Shown here in pieces: positions 33,935 to 63,428 of a DNA stretch of 64,000 bases. A program made the position numbers and the translations under genes. The DNA lies in contig CAYXYP010000002.1 of the NCBI GenBank assembly GCA_964469405.1, positions 9,338-73,337 of the forward strand, written 5' to 3'. The notes beneath the pieces were generated by a model. That model had not been told where the DNA came from. It did no database searches and saw only the letters and a program-made list of their open reading frames with translations. The stretch's first letter is position 1. The number at the start of each line of letters is the position of its first letter. The DNA comes from an uncultured Candidatus Saccharibacteria bacterium (GTDB lineage Bacteria; Patescibacteriota; Minisyncoccia; Phycocordibacterales; Phycocordibacteraceae).

Positions 33935-34699
33935 TTACTTCTCAGAGTCTCTGTCTATTCGCTGTGTGCGGCTTCGTGTCAGGGTTTCCTTTCTCATCTC
34001 AAATAGGAGCTCCTTCATAACTTCAGGTTTAACCCGTATGTATGGAACTCCGTTGATAACTTCTTCTTCAATGTACGCCGGTAAGGACTGACGCCGATAC
34101 ACCGCAGGATCGTTCATATCCACACGAATAGTTTCTATTGGTTGATGAAAGAGTCTATTAACTACACAACCTGTAATTTCAGTATTGGTCGAGCTACCTT
34201 CCAATCGTAAGACCCACACACGCCTAAATGGGCCTGGGGAAAGGAGACTCTCTTTCAACTGCTCGACCCACGTCGGGCTTTGCGCGTTATTCAAGTAGAT
34301 AAGGAGATCGTAGTTTGTAGTTGAATAATGGTTTTCAAGTTTCCCTTTAATGATCACTCTTGCCTCCTCAATGCTCGTGCACCGCGGCGGCACCTCAACC
34401 AGTTCTATTTGTGCAAAACCAATACCGGGTGGATTTCCATCAAATACCAGGAGGCTGAAGTCAGGAAATTGATCCTTAACGGGCAACAAGAACCAATCTA
34501 AACCCGTGACCTTCTTCATTGCGACCATAAAGTACATAAGAGCAAAGCTCTCCCTATCTTTCTTTACATTCTCATCGGTGCTCGAGAAAAACTTCTTGGA
34601 ACCAATGCGCTTGAGTGTCGTTTCCATCTTTCTCAGCACCGCAATCCAATCTGAAAGAAGCAAAGAGTTGCTAGAAATGAAGCTTGGTTCCTGGGACAT
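33935..34699 (-). CDS. Hypothetical protein (254 aa), variable partner gene upstream of small paralog 1
   Basis: Ends 12 nt before the paralog-1 start; no recognisable domain. Confidence 0.5.
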   Translation of the reverse strand: MSQEPSFISSNSLLLSDWIAVLRKMETTLKRIGSKKFFSSTDENVKKDRESFALMYFMVAMKKVTGLDWFLLPVKDQFPDFSLLVFDGNPPGIGFAQIELVEVPPRCTSIEEARVIIKGKLENHYSTTNYDLLIYLNNAQSPTWVEQLKESLLSPGPFRRVWVLRLEGSSTNTEITGCVVNRLFHQPIETIRVDMNDPAVYRRQSLPAYIEEEVINGVPYIRVKPEVMKELLFEMRKETLTRSRTQRIDRDSEK

Positions 34700-34750: not shown

Positions 34751-34872
34751 GAAAGGTTCGAATCCTGGACAGTGTCAACTGAACGAAACAAAAAATACCG
34801 ACAGTCGCGTAAAAAAGCCCTGAATTACAGGGCTTTTTAACGGCGTGATATTTTGCCTGCGAGACAAGAACT
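34751..34872. repeat. Repeat U copy 1: about 124-nt unit with a tRNA T-arm-like GGTTCGAATCC motif (34755-34765) and a bidirectional hairpin terminator (34811-34838)
   Basis: AAAAAAGCCCTGAATTACAGGGCTTTTT; copies at 35877-36000 and 36341-36465. Confidence 0.8.
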
Positions 34873-34965
34873 GGTGCGCCACTTTGGACAGAATTAGAAC
34901 TTTATACAACACTCGCGATTCCGAACTCCTCAGGACATTAGCTATTATTCGGGACTTGGAGAGGA
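34873..34965. repeat. Repeat R copy 2
   Basis: See R copy 1. Confidence 0.8.
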
Positions 34966-35166
34966 AGCTTGGAGCTCTCCAAGATGATCTTCCGAAGGCG
35001 GCATAGGGTGCTTAGGGATCTCGCCGGGTAGCGGACAGTAGATGATGAAGTAGAGCTCTATCAGACGATCGGTCATCTCAATTGCATCCCTCTCCGATAA
35101 GTACTTCCCGAATTCTTCCTGGTACAACTTCCGGAATTCATCAATGCTGGTTTTGTGTGTATGCAT
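34945..35166 (-). CDS. Small conserved protein, paralog 2 of 3 (73 aa)
   Basis: SIDEFRKLYQEEFGKYLSERDAIEMTDRLIELYFIIYCPLPGE...SSPSPE. Confidence 0.6.
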   Translation of the reverse strand: MHTHKTSIDEFRKLYQEEFGKYLSERDAIEMTDRLIELYFIIYCPLPGEIPKHPMPPSEDHLGELQASSPSPE

Positions 35167-35263
35167 GAGTACGGTCTACCCATGTCTCAGAAATCTTCAA
35201 GGGTTGCCACAAACAAAAAGAGCCAGGTTGTGTAACCTGACTCTTTTGATATAACGTTTACAA

Positions 35264-35587
35264 CTACCGAGCACAGAACTTCCCAGCTGGTTGGTTTTCA
35301 TAAATGGAATAGACTCGTCGTTGGCCATAGATGACCTTTTCGCCTGGTTGGAGATCTTTGCAGACACGTGTGCGACGCAGGAGTTTTCCGTTGCCGTCAT
35401 AATCGTGCCTCACCCACCAAGAGCCACCTGAACACCTGATCTGTCCATCAGTTTTCAAGATGAGCATTCGGCGACCCCAAAGCGGATAGAAATCGTAGCT
35501 ATGGGGCTCATTCTCGTTTCCACTACCCATCTCCCATCCCACAAGATGATCGAGACGAGCAAACACTCTTTGGAGCAAGGTTGTCAT
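35264..35587 (-). CDS. Hypothetical protein (107 aa), variable partner gene upstream of small paralog 2
   Basis: Trp/Gly-rich; no recognisable domain. Confidence 0.4.
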   Translation of the reverse strand: MTTLLQRVFARLDHLVGWEMGSGNENEPHSYDFYPLWGRRMLILKTDGQIRCSGGSWWVRHDYDGNGKLLRRTRVCKDLQPGEKVIYGQRRVYSIYENQPAGKFCAR

Positions 35588-35876
35588 GAACCCTCCTATC
35601 TTTCAATTGGGACAGTTTGAACAATCGTTTTCACACTTTCATGACCTGGTCGATGGGTGAGGATTAGAATTGTGCCGCGTTCCTCTCCTTGGAAATATTC
35701 GACAGTCTCTCCTCGCTTCTGTACTCGAGCCACCCTACCTCCGCCCGCTTTCTTTTCCATGCCATTTCCTTTCTGTGATCCATCAAAGAGCTGTTATGAA
35801 TTGTCTTCGCTGCTGTGGGAAAGTAAAGCACCCATGGTCGAGACTGTCACGAGAGGTGTTTCGGCAGGGTGCGAGA

Positions 35877-36000
35877 AAAAGGTTCGAATCCTATACAGAG
35901 TCGACAGGACAGATTTAGAAAGGCCGGCAATGCAACAAAAAAGCCCTTAGTTACAGGGCTTTTTTGTGTAGTGATATTTTGCCTACGAGGCAACGTGCGG
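35877..36000. repeat. Repeat U copy 2 (T-arm-like motif at 35881-35891; hairpin at 35937-35965)
   Basis: See U copy 1. Confidence 0.8.
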
Positions 36001-36095
36001 GTGCACCGCTTTGGACAGAATCAGAACTTTGTATAACGCTCGCGATCCTGAACTGCTCCACACACTCGCCATTATTCGGGATTTGGAAAGGAAGC
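36001..36095. repeat. Repeat R copy 3 (the most diverged copy)
   Basis: See R copy 1. Confidence 0.7.
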
Positions 36096-36293
36096 ATCAT
36101 ACTCGTCGCAAGAATCTGCCAAAGGCGGCGTAGTGACGTCGTTATGTTCACCGGGCAACGGGCGATACAAAATCTGGTAGAGACCGATCAAGCGTGCTAC
36201 CATCTCGATCGCATCTTCTTCAGATAGGTACTTCCCACACTCCTCCTGGTACAGCTTTCGAAATTCATCAATGCTATTTGTGTGTATGGGCAT
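36072..36293 (-). CDS. Small conserved protein, paralog 3 of 3 (73 aa)
   Basis: SIDEFRKLYQEECGKYLSEEDAIEMVARLIGLYQILYRPLPGEH...SFPNPE. Confidence 0.6.
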   Translation of the reverse strand: MPIHTNSIDEFRKLYQEECGKYLSEEDAIEMVARLIGLYQILYRPLPGEHNDVTTPPLADSCDEYDASFPNPE

Positions 36294-36340
36294 ACCTACT
36301 CTCTACCCGTATATCAAAACTCTTCAAGTTTCTGGCTTCA

Positions 36341-36465
36341 GAAAGGTTCGAGTCCTACACAGAGTCAGCAGAACAGATTTAAAAAAGCTCGTGAAGCAGC
36401 AAAAAAGCCCTGAATTACAGGGCTTTTTTACGGTGTGAAATTTTGCCTGCGAGGCAATGTGCGAG
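36341..36465. repeat. Repeat U copy 3, directly abutting the tRNA-Leu(GAG) 3' end (T-arm-like motif at 36345-36355; hairpin at 36401-36429)
   Basis: See U copy 1. Confidence 0.8.
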
Positions 36466-36549
36466 TGCCCAGGAGAGGACTCGAACCTCCAAGCCCTTTC
36501 GGGCGCTACCACCTCAAGGTAGTACGTCTACCAATTTCGCCACCTGGGC
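36466..36549 (-). tRNA. tRNA-Leu (anticodon GAG), type II with long variable arm; no encoded CCA
   Basis: Manual fold: acceptor GCCCAGG/CCTGGGC, anticodon loop TTGAGGT, variable arm CGCCCGAAAGGGCTT, T-arm GGAGG-TTCGAGT-CCTCT. Confidence 0.9.
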
Positions 36550-38596: not shown

Positions 38597-38765
38597 ATTT
38601 ATTTCAACCTACAGATCATTACTTTTGGTTTCAGGTGCACCCTGATGGGCTTGGTCACGTATAATTTCTTGCTAATAATGTGCGCGACTCCGGATCGAAT
38701 CGGCACCCTCCGGCTTTCGAGCCCCACAAAATACGGCGAAAGTATTGTTTTCGTCTCATATTTTG

Positions 38766-38839
38766 TGCACCCTGAGGGGCTCGAACCCCCGACCTTCGCA
38801 GTGTAAATGCGCTGCTCTACCAACTGAGCTAAGGGTGCA
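38766..38839 (-). tRNA. tRNA-Val (anticodon TAC)
   Basis: Manual fold: acceptor GCACCCT/AGGGTGC, anticodon loop TTTACAC, T-loop TTCGAGC. Confidence 0.85.
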
Positions 38840-38862
38840 TCAATACATCATACTGTATTTCG

Positions 38863-39011
38863 TGGGCATGGAGGGACTCGGTCACACTTCGCTCAGTCGC
38901 CTCGCTCCTAAGCGAGGCGCGACCCCGGCTCGCCTGTCCTCACTTCGTTCAGACATAGCTCCGCCTTTCGAGTCCTGCGCACCCTATGTAGATAGGGTGC
39001 GCCCCATGCCC
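38863..39011 (-). ncRNA. 149-nt tRNA-Leu-like element: acceptor stem and T-loop/3' end identical to the adjacent tRNA-Leu(CAG), with about 115 nt of hairpin-rich sequence in place of the D, anticodon and variable arms; pseudo-tRNA, insertion-disrupted tRNA, or novel tRNA-like ncRNA
   Basis: 5' GGGCATG.GGCG and 3' CGAGTCCCTCCATGCCCA are shared with 39033-39114. Internal hairpins: GCGCACCCTAT/ATAGGGTGCGC (11 bp) and CGCCTCGCT/AGCGAGGCG (9 bp). A CTGA(A/G)CGAAGTG motif is repeated. Confidence 0.4.
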
Positions 39012-39032
39012 TCCGCTCATTGCATTTCGCTG

Positions 39033-39114
39033 TGGGCATGGAGGGACTCGAACCCTCAACCCTTACGGGATACGCTTCTGAGACGTACGCGTATACCAGT
39101 TCCGCCACATGCCC
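39033..39114 (-). tRNA. tRNA-Leu (anticodon CAG), type II
   Basis: Manual fold: acceptor GGGCATG/CATGCCC, anticodon loop CTCAGAA, variable arm TCCCGTAAGGGGTT, T-arm GAGGG-TTCGAGT-CCCTC. Confidence 0.85.
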
Positions 39115-39243
39115 GTACGCATACCTTACTATACAAACTATCATCTGTGGCCACAACTCAAAACTTACCGTCACAAATCTTGACCGCGACACAGAGCGGA
39201 ATCTACACACCTCCACCAAGTGATCTGGGCGATAGTTATGTGT

Positions 39244-39318
39244 TGGTGCCCCCAGCAGGAATCGAACCTACATCAACGGCTTAGAAGTCCGCTACTTTAT
39301 CCATTAAGCTATGGGGGC
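39244..39318 (-). tRNA. tRNA-Arg (anticodon TCT), CCA encoded
   Basis: Manual fold: acceptor GCCCCCA/TGGGGGC, anticodon loop CTTCTAA, T-loop TTCGATT. Confidence 0.85.
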
Positions 39319-43711: not shown

Positions 43712-43920
43712 CAAAAAGAGCGTAGTGATTTTTGTGCTCTCGAAGCACGTCGCCTGCGCGACGTGCTTGAGGAATCGAAAGGCGGAGCGATGTTCGGCTA
43801 GCAAGCCGAACCGCGAGCCCTGCCCAGACAAACTTTTGCGACGGCAAAACTTTAGTCGAGGAAGATATGGCGTACTCGCCGGTCCTCTTTGCTATGAGAA
43901 AGTGTTAGTATCGCTAAAAT

Positions 43921-60871: not shown

Positions 60872-61972
60872 TTATTGATTCATTGGAGAAACGAGATACA
60901 GGAGTGAGGTATCATTCATTCCTTTTATAATAAGTGGGCGCCCAACTCCAGCCGCAAGAAGTGAGACACTTTCTGATGTGGTGAGAGATAACACTGCTGA
61001 AAGATATCGATGATTAAAAGACAATTCAAGAGCACTTCCTGATATGTTGGCTGGGATTGTCTCTAATGATTCTCCAATATCTGCATTTCGCGCAAAGAAA
61101 GAAAATACATTCTTTTTAGGATCAAAACTAATACGTACTTTCTGAAATAAATCAGAAAAAATAGTTGTTCTCTTGAGTGCATTTTCGAAATCTTTTCGCA
61201 ATATAATTGCTTCAACAATTGATTCTTTTGGTATAATTTGCCTATAATCTGGGTACACAGCATTTGTTAGGCGTGATACCAACATACCCTTATCACTTAC
61301 AAAGGCACATTGATGCTCATCAAATGACATAATAATATCATTATCTGGTAACGCTTGTGCTATATCAAGAGCATTTTTTGCTGGAATAAGAAACTTTCCT
61401 TGAAGTCCTTTATTAATTAAAGGTACTTTTTTCTCAGCAAGTCTGAATGAATCAGTAGCAACAGCGGTTAATATCCCCCCTTCAATAGATATATAAATAC
61501 TGGATAATTCAGGACGGACCGTAGATGTTGATGCGCATGATGCAATAGAGGTAAAAAGTGAACGTAAAAGTATTCCAGGAATTACTATTCTATTTTTTGG
61601 ATTTTCTGGAAATGGAATCGACGGGAAATCATCATAAGGAATGGTTTTTATAGAGCTTTTACTTGTACCACTTGTAATTGAAATAACCTCCCCAATATGC
61701 TCGATTATTATCTTCCCTTCTTGAGTGAATAAGCTTGCTATTTGCTGAAGTATTATCGCAGGAATTGCGACAACGCCTTTTGTAGTGCATTCACCTTCAA
61801 GTTTTAAATCTATACCTGTCTCAAGATTTGTTGCACGCATTTTTATACCCTCATCTCCCGCAATAATAAGTATTGAAGACAGTGCAGGAAGTGTTGCGCT
61901 TTTCTTTTGAGCAAACCGAGACACGATATGCACAGCCTCAGAGAATTTATTTTTTTCTATTAAAATATTCAT
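60872..61972 (-). CDS. dnaN: DNA polymerase III beta sliding clamp
   Basis: 366 aa; three-domain clamp profile; immediately downstream of dnaA. Confidence 0.9.
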   Translation of the reverse strand: MNILIEKNKFSEAVHIVSRFAQKKSATLPALSSILIIAGDEGIKMRATNLETGIDLKLEGECTTKGVVAIPAIILQQIASLFTQEGKIIIEHIGEVISITSGTSKSSIKTIPYDDFPSIPFPENPKNRIVIPGILLRSLFTSIASCASTSTVRPELSSIYISIEGGILTAVATDSFRLAEKKVPLINKGLQGKFLIPAKNALDIAQALPDNDIIMSFDEHQCAFVSDKGMLVSRLTNAVYPDYRQIIPKESIVEAIILRKDFENALKRTTIFSDLFQKVRISFDPKKNVFSFFARNADIGESLETIPANISGSALELSFNHRYLSAVLSLTTSESVSLLAAGVGRPLIIKGMNDTSLLYLVSPMNQ

Positions 61973-62072
61973 ACAATTCTTATTAAGGGTGTTGATAAGT
62001 GGATAACATAAAAATATAAGGAGATTGTTGGATATTTACACACGACTGTTTTATATAATATGTTGATAAGGT
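61973..62072. promoter_or_regulatory. Candidate oriC segment: AT-rich dnaA-dnaN spacer with DnaA-box-like 9-mers
   Basis: TGTTGATAA (61991-61999), AGTGGATAA (62000-62008) and TGTTGATAA (62061-62069), compared with the TGTGGATAA consensus; AT-rich run TTTTATATAATAT. Confidence 0.55.
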
Positions 62073-63428
62073 TCATACAAGAAGGGTTCTAATATTTTGA
62101 ATTTCTTGTGCGAGTTCACTGTCCACAACTATTTCACGCTTTATCTTCTCACAGGAGTGGATAACGGTCGTATGATCACGACCACCAAGTTTTGTACCTA
62201 TGGTTGGGTACGATATTCTAAAATCCTCACGAAGGATATACATTATAATTTGCCGCGGACGAACAACTTCCCTACGTCTAGTTTTCTCATAGATACTCTC
62301 TTCATCGATACCATAAAATTCAGCTACTTTATCAACTACATTTTTTACCGATATATTTTTCTGTGGACGAGTAAAAGAACGTAGAGACTGCCGCACTTCC
62401 GCGATGTCGGGGGCAAAACCCTTTACTTGAGCATGGCAGATTATACTATTTACCATACCTTCTAACTCACGTATTGAGCCATTCATAGATGTTGCTACAT
62501 AATCAACAACCTCATCAGATAGTAGTACACCATGTGAGGCAGCTTTTTTTCTTACAATAGCCATACGGGATTCTGGGTCGGGTTCGCCAATATCTACAGC
62601 CATACCACTCGCTAAACGGCCCTTAAGACGTTCAGCGATGTCTGGAATAGCCGCAGGAGGTCGATCAGAAGAAAAAATAATCTGTTTATTTGTGTCGTAA
62701 AGAGCATTAAAAAGATGGAAAAGCTCCTCCTGAGTCTTTTCTTTTTTAGAGAGAAATTGAACATCATCCATAATAAGAAGGTCATATTGACGATATTTAT
62801 CTTTGAAACGATTTGCAGTACCAGCTTGCACGGAGTCGGTATAGTCGACTGCGAATTTTTCTGACGTTAAATAGAAAACTTTCCGTCCTTGGTACTGTTT
62901 TTTATAATGGTTACCAATAGCTTGAATAAGGTGCGTTTTGCCGCGGCCGGTGTCACCGTAAATAAAGAGAGGGTTATAGGTAATACCAGGGCGTTCGAGT
63001 GCCGCCTGGGCTGCAACATAGGCTAAATTGTTAAAAGAACCGATAACAAACGTATCAAACGTATAGCGGGGATTCAAATTGTCACTTTTGTTGATGTAAA
63101 AATCATCAAGAGGAAGTTCGAGTGCACTACTACGTACGGTTTTGGTCTCCTTGGATAATCTACGATTCTCATCCTTCACAATAAGATACTCAATATTGCG
63201 AAATTCATATGAAACGTCGCGAACAATCTTCAATAGTAAGGTATTAAATTTCTTAAGGTACCAATCCTTAAAGAATTGACTCGGGACACCAATATATACA
63301 ACGCCGTCCTCCCCTATTTTTACGATAAAACTATTACGGAACCATGTGTTGAAATTTGCGGGCGATATAGAAAGTTCAATATGGGTGAGTATGTACTCCC
63401 AAAGTTCTCGAGGATCTCCTTTATTCAT
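62073..63428 (-). CDS. dnaA: Chromosomal replication initiator DnaA
   Basis: AAA+ GDTGRGKTHL; C-terminal DNA-binding domain; divergent from rpmH. Confidence 0.95.
   Translation of the reverse strand: MNKGDPRELWEYILTHIELSISPANFNTWFRNSFIVKIGEDGVVYIGVPSQFFKDWYLKKFNTLLLKIVRDVSYEFRNIEYLIVKDENRRLSKETKTVRSSALELPLDDFYINKSDNLNPRYTFDTFVIGSFNNLAYVAAQAALERPGITYNPLFIYGDTGRGKTHLIQAIGNHYKKQYQGRKVFYLTSEKFAVDYTDSVQAGTANRFKDKYRQYDLLIMDDVQFLSKKEKTQEELFHLFNALYDTNKQIIFSSDRPPAAIPDIAERLKGRLASGMAVDIGEPDPESRMAIVRKKAASHGVLLSDEVVDYVATSMNGSIRELEGMVNSIICHAQVKGFAPDIAEVRQSLRSFTRPQKNISVKNVVDKVAEFYGIDEESIYEKTRRREVVRPRQIIMYILREDFRISYPTIGTKLGGRDHTTVIHSCEKIKREIVVDSELAQEIQNIRTLLV

Follow-up and report, generated by a model that had tools for sequence, protein, structure and literature searches.

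The ends of a 150-nt segment in a transfer RNA (tRNA) gene cluster of an uncultured Candidatus Saccharibacteria bacterium look like those of a tRNA, and the sequence between them does not, which raises the question of what the segment is and how it came to lie there. It occupies the minus strand of positions 38862-39011 of a 64,000-nt stretch of contig CAYXYP010000002.1, which was analysed as a whole and is called the window below. We interpret the element, with confidence a little above even, as a selfish, non-autonomous, site-specific insertion cassette that targets the T-loop of tRNA and transfer-messenger RNA (tmRNA) genes between nucleotides 55 and 56 (55|56), and that probably moves as a folded single strand with the help of an enzyme acting in trans; the copy behind tRNA-Leu(CAG), the Leu copy, is intact. 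The interpretation builds on an insertion polymorphism, a near-absolute association with tRNA and tmRNA genes, a characteristic architecture, covariation, a multi-copy state and the decay of old copies, all of which were observed, as was the lack of a linked recombinase.

A preliminary description, made from the sequence alone, presented the element as tRNA-Leu-like with a replaced core, and the likeness is real. Read along the minus strand (39011..38862), the element begins with GGGCATGGGGCG, which matches the 5′ end of tRNA-Leu, GGGCATGTGGCG, at 12 of the first 14 nucleotides. Its 3′ end was said to be shared with tRNA-Leu(CAG), and the copy of the last 18-19 nt is exact: 38862-38880 equals 39032-39050 over 19 nt, and two matches occurred in none of 100 shuffles. 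The claimed T-loop identity holds from C56 onward; U54, U55 and the 5′ strand of the T-stem are missing, and the 5′ acceptor strand and positions 56-73 are the only tRNA parts that the element has. The minus-strand order tRNA-Arg(TCT), tRNA-Leu(CAG), element, tRNA-Val(TAC) was reproduced by ARAGORN, with uppS following. A perfect 11-bp hairpin is present at 38977-38987/38992-39002. The second reported hairpin, a perfect 9-bp pairing of GCCTCGCT with AGCGAGGC, can be drawn and is preferred by DNA parameters, but is not the fold supported by the family, in which this segment forms the P3 arm described below (CUUAG-GAGCGAGGCGA-CUGAG on GGUCGC/GUGACC, as in locus L025). The repeated 12-mer CTGA(A/G)CGAAGTG was rejected as a meaningful motif, since at least two matches with at most one mismatch arose in 10 of 100 shuffles, and its two copies occupy different structural contexts.

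The sequence features are thus largely real; the reading of them as a damaged or intron-bearing tRNA is wrong. The element is not a tRNA disrupted by an insertion: an intact tRNA-Leu(CAG) lies directly upstream of it, and it has no D, anticodon or variable arms and no 5′ T-stem strand. The second half of an intron-bearing tRNA is missing, and the models of group I and other introns were silent at E ≤ 10. At this threshold, ARAGORN and Rfam called the three flanking tRNAs and nothing at 38862-39011. None of the introns, self-cleaving ribozymes, riboswitches and other RNAs of Rfam 15 was found over the window core at E ≤ 10, and ARAGORN found no tmRNA in the window. Sub-threshold Rfam matches in the window to tmRNA_permuted (16.1 bits, cut-off 47) and YrlA (15.2 bits, cut-off 69) overlap mainly the tRNA-Leu 3′ end. 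Eight typical members of the family described below matched no Rfam family at E ≤ 1, introns included. A tRNA, tmRNA or Y RNA identity was rejected on these results.

Comparison with relatives identifies the element as part of an insertion. The proteins encoded around it assign the window to Patescibacteria, with a likeness to Paceibacteria/Kaiserbacteria from Hainich groundwater. Syntenic relatives keep a gene order that starts with PilM and includes a 102-residue gene, tRNA-Arg, tRNA-Leu, tRNA-Val, uppS, rluD and rplS. In three of them (L004, L006 and L009) the order is the same and nothing lies between tRNA-Leu and tRNA-Val; the two genes are 193 nt apart in the window, but L006 has a spacer of 23 nt and L004 one of 36 nt. 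The sequence after the downstream repeat of the window, beginning with GAAATACAGTATGATGTA, is orthologous to the tRNA-Leu trailer of L006. The short spacers of the relatives and the orthologous trailer mean that the window carries a 170-nt insert bounded by the tRNA 3′ repeat; it holds no open reading frame (ORF). The preliminary description had proposed that an empty orthologous site would mark a simple pseudogene. The sites are empty as it foresaw, but the conclusion is wrong, as the insert is one of many copies of a family that is conserved and shows covariation.

A second, decayed copy behind tRNA-Val shows the insertion point. In L099, whose UppS is 90% identical, the tRNA-Val site is empty and the downstream flank is 100% identical, and the site is likewise empty in L006. 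The alignment gap of the Val insert against L099 opens exactly between U55 and C56. Such a close empty site exists only for the Val copy and not for the Leu copy: L188 (neighbouring protein 98% identical) stops inside tRNA-Leu, and L189 inside tRNA-Arg.

The family was delineated with a search pattern taken from the window element, TCGAAAGSCGGAG-N(10-40)-CCGGRGTCGC. Run on one-genome-per-species contigs, it matched at least 88 loci, where we estimate about 2 by chance, mostly in Saccharibacteria, Paceibacterota and their relatives, and Elusimicrobia. In metagenome contigs, at least 88 loci matched a more stringent pattern of three blocks. A covariance model, R1 (112 positions, 33 pairs), recognized 221 copies in the fetched loci, 117 from genomes and 104 from metagenomes. 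Within 160 nt downstream of a tRNA or tmRNA gene on the same strand lie 96 of the genomic and 79 of the metagenomic copies, and 9 and 8 more, respectively, stand behind another copy. About 90% of the copies whose upstream sequence can be judged lie behind a tRNA, a tmRNA or another copy, and most of the remainder are at contig ends. The targets comprise more than 40 anticodons and 7 tmRNA genes. Copies repeat with a period of 127-255 nt and form tandem arrays in one orientation; in a 5-kb stretch of L082, each of four tRNAs is followed by one to three copies, and tandem copies were also recorded in L022. The family is widespread, absent from Rfam and apparently undescribed: searches of the full-text literature, conserved core strings included, found no description of the element.

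Longer units with one or two small genes at the spacer position occur in L083, L027, L052 and L133. Their products are DUF695 or DUF6122 proteins according to Pfam, small membrane proteins or unknowns, with no recombinase among them. All-against-all clustering of 831 ORFs within 3.5 kb of the copies, from about 84 loci, gave no protein family present in more than 7 loci; the SmpB neighbours are there because insertions sit behind tmRNA genes. No linked recombinase, reverse transcriptase or transposase recurs within 3.5 kb of the copies, and this includes the TnpA (Y1 HUH), TnpB and DEDD genes of IS200/IS605-type and IS110 bridge-RNA elements.

The cargo copy of L133 (reverse complement, 120-1500), located behind tRNA-Gln, has two small membrane ORFs. 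A near-identical terminator (GACCYYGGC...GGGTCTTTTTGTTTGRTAT) follows the first ORF and the tail, a third one follows the tRNA, and the motif CCCGCTGTGTTCAGTWGGGGAGCCAG occurs twice. These repeats are hints of further cassette boundaries.

In the sense of the tRNA, the order of parts is the tRNA with its segment from C56 to the 3′ end (S′), spacer, outer arm, hairpin H1, P1 arm, AAAG, P2, GG, P3, GUGAC and tail. The spacer contains a hairpin and T-run terminator in 65 of 142 distinct cases (46%); that of the Leu copy, AGCGAA...UGAGCG, resembles spacers elsewhere, for example in L064 and L035. The arm as a whole is complementary to tRNA positions 56-75 and is usually split by H1. The outer arm is the reverse complement of about positions 66-75, and the P1 arm, which ends in UCG, is that of positions 56-65. 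H1 is optional, with its commonest site at the 65/66 junction; it stands at the equivalent place in most family members and is missing in some, such as L089. P2 is formed by GGC/GCC, a bulged G, tandem G·A pairs and a variable hairpin. P3 consists of GGUCGC/GUGACC with a conserved G·U pair and a bulged A, and a variable hairpin often tipped by GAGCGACGGCGA or GAGCGAAGCGA. The tail repeats tRNA positions 56 to about 75. In the core of the Leu copy, AAAG is followed by P2 (GGCGGAG...CGAGCC, 38927-38965), GG and P3 (GGUCGC...GUGAC, 38881-38924). The tail and the complementary arm account for the tRNA-like look of the element.

Throughout the family, spacer hairpins as well as P2 and P3 repeatedly end in tips of the form GA-NN-GNA-NN-GA (GAGCGAAGCGA, GAACGAAGUGA, GAGCGUAGUGA) or in GAGCGACGGCGA; in the window they stand at 38941-38957, 38898-38910 and 43718-43728. 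GCGAAGC is an unusually stable DNA mini-hairpin. The tips may act as a module for protein binding or for stability. H1 of the Leu copy (GCGCACCCUAU/AUAGGGUGCGC, 38977-39002) includes both acceptor-stem strands of tRNA-Val (GCACCCU/AGGGUGC), and the H1 sequences of other copies are unrelated to that stem. The match may go back to recombination with a Val-type copy, or be a coincidence.

The helices are maintained while their sequences change. In alignments fitted to R1, which somewhat inflates pairing, 92.7% of the cells in genome loci are paired (31-45% for slid pairings), with 747 both-side changes (slid, 103-170); in the metagenome loci the values are 95.0% (32-44%) and 517 (64-128). None of 500 shuffles reached these levels in either set. 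RNAalifold on a plain MAFFT alignment gave 17-26 double changes for each P3 pair. P1 tracks the T-loop and T-stem of the neighbouring tRNA: the first pair that varies is divided among AU (27 copies), UA (20) and CG (14), and where the T-loop reads UUCAAGU the arm has UUG and the tail CAA. GU and UG pairs number 139 against 62 AC and CA pairs. The 150-nt stretch of the Leu copy folds as RNA with -90.2 kcal/mol (z -7.6; 0 of 200 shuffles as good), and with DNA parameters at z -6.4 relative to shuffles. Because the folding energies are significant for RNA and DNA and for both strands, they do not discriminate between the two kinds of molecule.

The relation of arm and tail to the tRNA suggests what is inherited together. 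Identity between tail and tRNA is about 0.95 at positions 56-62, the first eight tail positions having been used in selecting the pairs, falls to 0.6-0.75 at 66-73 and reaches background from 76. Among P1 positions where the tail differs from the tRNA, 28 have an arm that fits the tRNA version alone and 4 an arm that fits the tail alone; in 9 cases the arm can pair with either. The excess of 28 over 4 is expected if the mobile unit consists of the tRNA-3′ copy, arm and core. In the Val copy the arm GGGGCUCG fits the tRNA, CGAGCCCC, and not the tail, CAAGCCCA. At some loci, for instance L064 and L098, an encoded CCA is present in the tail and not in the tRNA copy, and the L064 tail also has a terminator. 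The sequences fit a unit of inheritance made up of the tRNA-3′ copy, spacer, arm and core ending in GUGAC. Cores that stand beside different tRNAs can be 92-95% identical although their arms, H1 and spacers have nothing in common. Of the three copies in the window, two are decayed and only the Leu copy is intact, which indicates that individual copies are not maintained by the host.

We hypothesize that the inserted unit supplies its own tRNA 3′ part (C56 to about position 75), which would keep the tRNA whole, followed by the spacer (with a terminator in about half of the copies and occasionally one or two small cargo genes), an arm reverse-complementary to the tRNA 3′ part and usually interrupted by H1 near 65/66, and the conserved three-way-junction core ending in GUGAC. 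The unit would enter between positions 55 and 56 and shove the original 3′ part downstream, where it would form the tail and decay except for its first 8-10 nt. The arm, core and own tRNA-3′ copy would fold as a single strand, most likely of DNA, into a hairpin whose stem would reproduce the target duplex from C56 on, with the conserved core at the crossover end. A recombinase provided in trans would use the folded strand as its recombination site, with the crossover in the T-loop segment CGAnUCC, as at the integron attC site or the attP(+) hairpin of CTX phage. Both attC and CTX-phage attP(+) are folded single strands on which a tyrosine recombinase acts, and replication then makes the product permanent. 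Since an enzyme-less element can reach one defined phosphodiester in dozens of genes only by means of a trans-acting activity, this activity would recognize features common to all targets, the T-loop sequence, together with the element's own core.

We favour a single-strand mechanism at the DNA level because of the tiny units, the frequent terminator between tRNA and element, the strand bias (the excess of GU and UG pairs and the conserved G·U) and the tandem arrays; units of 127 bp would, we infer, be awkward as double-stranded circles. Several points weigh against the cassette interpretation. No excised circle or junction read was observed, and a crude motif scan of the 64-kb window turned up neither an integrase nor a reverse-transcriptase candidate. 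Conservation is highest in the core, which looks RNA-like, as a catalytic or protein-binding structure might, and has no counterpart in attC or CTX. The retargeting of arms between tRNAs is unexplained by the proposed model. The excess of G·U over A·C is partly built into the model-fitted alignment, and the fold is equally significant with RNA or DNA parameters and on both DNA strands. The Leu copy is, from its position, certainly transcribed, so that a role as RNA is possible; we regard it as a passenger, transcribed because it sits inside the Arg-Leu-Val tRNA operon without a terminator.

Among the closest analogues are integron cassettes with their attC sites, arrays of the CALIN type included. 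Like them, the element forms small promoterless units with none to two small genes and a terminal imperfect inverted repeat that is kept in structure rather than stem sequence and is strand-specific; the units accumulate in same-orientation arrays at a fixed point and would depend on an enzyme in trans. An imperfect inverted repeat that folds in a strand-specific way and closes the cassette characterizes attC, and such a repeat is present here. Unlike integron cassettes, however, the element attaches at the T-loop of any tRNA or tmRNA gene rather than at attI next to intI, and its stem copies the 3′ part of the target. The R and L boxes (RYYYAAC/GTTRRRY) are absent, the junction reads GUGAC|CGA, the terminal structure is a sequence-conserved three-way junction and not a variable loop, and no integrase-like ORF was found in a crude motif scan of the window. 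CTX phage, whose attP(+) hairpin mimics dif and is recombined by host XerCD, resembles the element in that inverted target copies about 90 nt apart can fold into a target-like duplex, in having no recombinase of its own, and in its tandem copies. It differs in its target, which is dif and not a tRNA T-loop, and the element consists of 130-250 nt units without phage genes, for which single-stranded DNA and a host recombinase are presumed.

Miniature inverted-repeat transposable elements (MITEs) and REP-like repeats (Correia, REP/BIME with RAYT, and IS200/IS605-derived PATEs) are similarly non-autonomous, multi-copy, hairpin-forming, 100-200 nt long, presumably mobilized in trans, and co-transcribable. 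They have terminal repeats of their own and short generic targets, whereas the repeat of the element is target tRNA sequence and its site is almost exclusively 3′ of a tRNA or tmRNA gene. The element is ORF-less and multi-copy as a MITE is, but its right repeat is some 20 nt of the target and changes from one tRNA to the next, and the inverted repeats are not its own. The tRNA inserts reported from Patescibacteria are group I introns in the anticodon loop (PMC13011429). They share with the element the host phylum and a structured, RNA-like insert at tRNA genes, but they interrupt the anticodon loop, exceed 200 nt, have a group I core and self-splice. The element, by contrast, follows a tRNA that is intact, and intron models do not match it.

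We consider the element kin to known kinds, namely to tRNA-gene integrative elements and to attC-like or MITE-like structured repeats, and see a small but real chance that it represents a new kind of targeting and chemistry. It is conceivable, though unlikely, that the element is programmed by pairing: the arm of about 20 nt would align with the chosen tRNA, and the core of about 90 nt, placed at 55|56, would catalyse strand exchange or recruit a host enzyme. If true, this would be a recombinase-less, retargetable tRNA-gene insertion system across most tRNA species of Patescibacteria and Elusimicrobia.

Improbable, in our judgement, is a functional RNA gene of about 150 nt whose product would imitate the top half (acceptor and T arms) of the tRNA next to it, the spread beside tRNAs being secondary. 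H1 would then replace nucleotides 8-48 and the core the T-loop, and the RNA would be excised by tRNA-processing enzymes to act, by way of its conserved three-way junction, as a ribozyme, protein sponge or regulator. The strong RNA-like covariation, the conserved G·U, the bulges and tandem G·A motifs, the prevalence of H1 at the 65/66 acceptor/T junction and a core sequence kept across phyla speak for such a gene, as does the transcription of the Leu copy between the co-transcribed tRNA-Leu and tRNA-Val with no terminator. However, the outer stem often runs beyond the discriminator to positions 74-79, so that a free NCCA-like end is then missing. A terminator lies upstream of the element in 46% of copies, which also lack room for a promoter. 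The integrated fold needs the tail, yet it is the tail that decays and the arm that keeps its fit to the tRNA; copies degenerate freely within genomes, two of three in the window; and the gene neighbourhood is inconsistent. The term tRNA-like non-coding RNA, offered in the preliminary description, comes close as a description, but the likeness originates from the target repeat and the complementary arm.

Integrases of the T-loop class, where they act on tRNA and tmRNA genes, classically leave a directly repeated tRNA 3′ part that begins in the T-loop. The copies might be remnants or miniatures of integrase-borne islands or prophages that integrated as double-stranded DNA at T-loops; only the DNA next to attP would have survived and may be mobilizable by resident integrases, with the structure being incidental or made of arm-type binding sites; we give this explanation a low probability. 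Its strength is that the element resembles such islands and prophages with tyrosine integrases in integrating at the T-loop, in the T-loop-to-3′-end repeat (19 of 19 nt here, and bounding the insert in most family members), in rebuilding the tRNA and in targeting tmRNA. The occasional cargo-bearing versions, and the CCA of L064 and L098, which agrees with the tail being the original host end, fit it as well. The element encodes no integrase, however, and none was found near the copies (about 84 loci clustered). The units are uniformly small (127-255 nt), roughly a hundred times smaller than islands, and have an inverted repeat copy, a structured core and dozens of tRNA species per family; more than 40 tRNA targets would demand as many integrase specificities. 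The extensive helix covariation with sequence turnover is unexpected of protein-binding double-stranded DNA. A phage or plasmid origin was rejected, as the core pattern is absent from IMG/VR viral contigs and a typical copy was unmatched among INPHARED phage genomes and PLSDB plasmids.

RNA-mediated mobility, in which a transcript, maybe circular, would exchange strands with the T-loop by means of an arm-guided ribozyme and then be copied back to DNA, is very improbable. The pairing of the arm with the tRNA 3′ part would put the conserved core exactly at the 55|56 exchange point, and the element encodes no protein. Yet such a route needs a reverse transcriptase, and none is linked; the roughly 40 conserved nucleotides make a small set for a ribozyme reaction of this kind, and known ribozyme families are unmatched. 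The reported absence of group II introns from Patescibacteria (PMC13011429) counts against it too. A tRNA-Leu paralogue with a replaced core, a tRNA that carries a non-canonical intron or a simple pseudogene of a tRNA, as the 5′ and 3′ strands common with tRNA-Leu(CAG) could suggest, has next to no probability and is already refuted by the spread and targets of the family: one core stands behind more than 40 other tRNAs and tmRNA with arms fitted to each gene, neither a tRNA body nor an intron model was detected, and relatives have an empty site.

If the interpretation as an insertion cassette is true, Elusimicrobia and the streamlined genomes of the Candidate Phyla Radiation hold an abundant, structured, enzyme-less element that lands in the universally conserved T-loop of tRNA and tmRNA genes and restores the gene it enters. 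It would account for tRNA-like oddities and duplicated tRNA 3′ ends, and would bear on tRNA annotation, assembly breaks and the prediction of islands from tRNA fragments. It would also provide a compact model of structure-dependent site-specific recombination beside attC and CTX-phage attP, and the constant core with target-fitted arms would pose a testable question of how a mobile element is retargeted. The covariance model R1 offers an immediate means of mapping the family.

Table 1. Coordinates of the Leu copy, its neighbouring genes, and other copies and repeats in the window.
Feature	Position	Strand	Evidence or remark
tRNA-Arg(TCT)	39244-39318	minus	ARAGORN
tRNA-Leu(CAG), target gene	39032..39114	minus	ARAGORN; Rfam tRNA 57.5 bits; segment from C56 to 3′ end, 39032-39050, is the upstream repeat copy (S′)
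Whole 170-nt insertion (spacer, element and downstream repeat)	38862..39031	minus	comparison with syntenic relatives
Spacer, tRNA 3′ end to outer arm	39012..39031	minus	sequence; terminator-like site absent in the Leu copy
Outer arm GGGCAUGGG, complementary to tRNA positions 64-72; pairs with 38864-38872	39003..39011	minus	minimum free energy (MFE) fold; same layout in family members
Hairpin H1, 11 bp, loop CUAC, branching between outer arm and P1 arm	38977..39002	minus	inverted repeat and MFE fold
P1 5′ arm GGACUCG, reverse complement of tRNA-Leu C56-C62	38969..38975	minus	fold and covariance model R1
Conserved three-way-junction core	38881..38968	minus	R1 75.2 bits, E 3e-20 over 38870-38981; invariant columns; covariation
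Tail, downstream repeat of tRNA-Leu from C56 to 3′ end, 19/19 identical	38862..38880	minus	exact repeat
tRNA-Val(TAC)	38765-38838	minus	ARAGORN
Second, decayed copy, behind tRNA-Val(TAC), without H1 or outer arm; tail 38635-38654	38635..38764	minus	R1 27.4 bits, E 4e-6
Third copy, behind tRNA-Arg(GCG)	43713..43873	plus	R1 48.2 bits, E 3e-12 over 43765-43873
Repeats of about 127 nt in the tRNA-Leu(GAG) array	36342-36468, 35878-36004, 34752-34878	minus	

The insert behind tRNA-Val measures 130 nt and has the blocks GGRCTCGAAAGSCGGAG, CCGGRGTCGCGC and GTGACC in common with the Leu copy. Its end matches the tRNA-Val 3′ end at 17 of 20 positions, and at 15 of 16 over the 3′ part. The third copy retains the spacer hairpin, outer arm, H1, P1 arm and P2; its P3 and tail are degenerate. 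The spacer between tRNA-Arg(TCT) and tRNA-Leu(CAG) (about 39115-39243, minus strand) is 129 nt long in the window and in L188, 31-32 nt in L004, L006 and L009, and about 40 nt in L190. Its extra stretch of about 95 nt contains a P3-like hairpin, GUCGCGG...UGUGAC, and scores only 9.7 bits with R1 (E 0.74); it may be a badly decayed fourth copy.

A different type of array spans 34752-36468 on the minus strand, behind tRNA-Leu(GAG) (36465-36549). Its three repeats of about 127 nt each contain a decayed tRNA-Leu(GAG) 3′ part, a hairpin, a terminator and AGGAYTCGAACC, which is the reverse complement of the T-loop region, with 0 occurrences expected by chance. The layout is again repeat, spacer and inverted repeat, without the three-way-junction core. 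The repeats are parted by units of about 1.1 kb with small ORFs, namely 73-residue paralogues at 36072-36293 and 34945-35166 and a 254-residue ORF at 33935-34699, none of which has a Pfam match. In L004 (5030-5740) and L009 (5139-5846), an ORF of about 235 residues lies between rplS and tRNA-Leu(GAG), and that of L004 has a faint match to LAGLIDADG_3; the window is without this ORF and has the cassette array downstream of tRNA-Leu(GAG) instead.

Upstream of tRNA-Val in L009 (2775-2862) there is a duplicate of the tRNA-Val 5′ end (GCACCCTTAGCTCAG), two short hairpins at the position of the D-loop and TTGGTAGAGCAG, followed by the intact tRNA-Val. At the right end of the window, ORFs resembling dnaN and dnaA (60872-63428), recognized by eye from their first 50 residues only, place the tRNA clusters near a probable replication origin.

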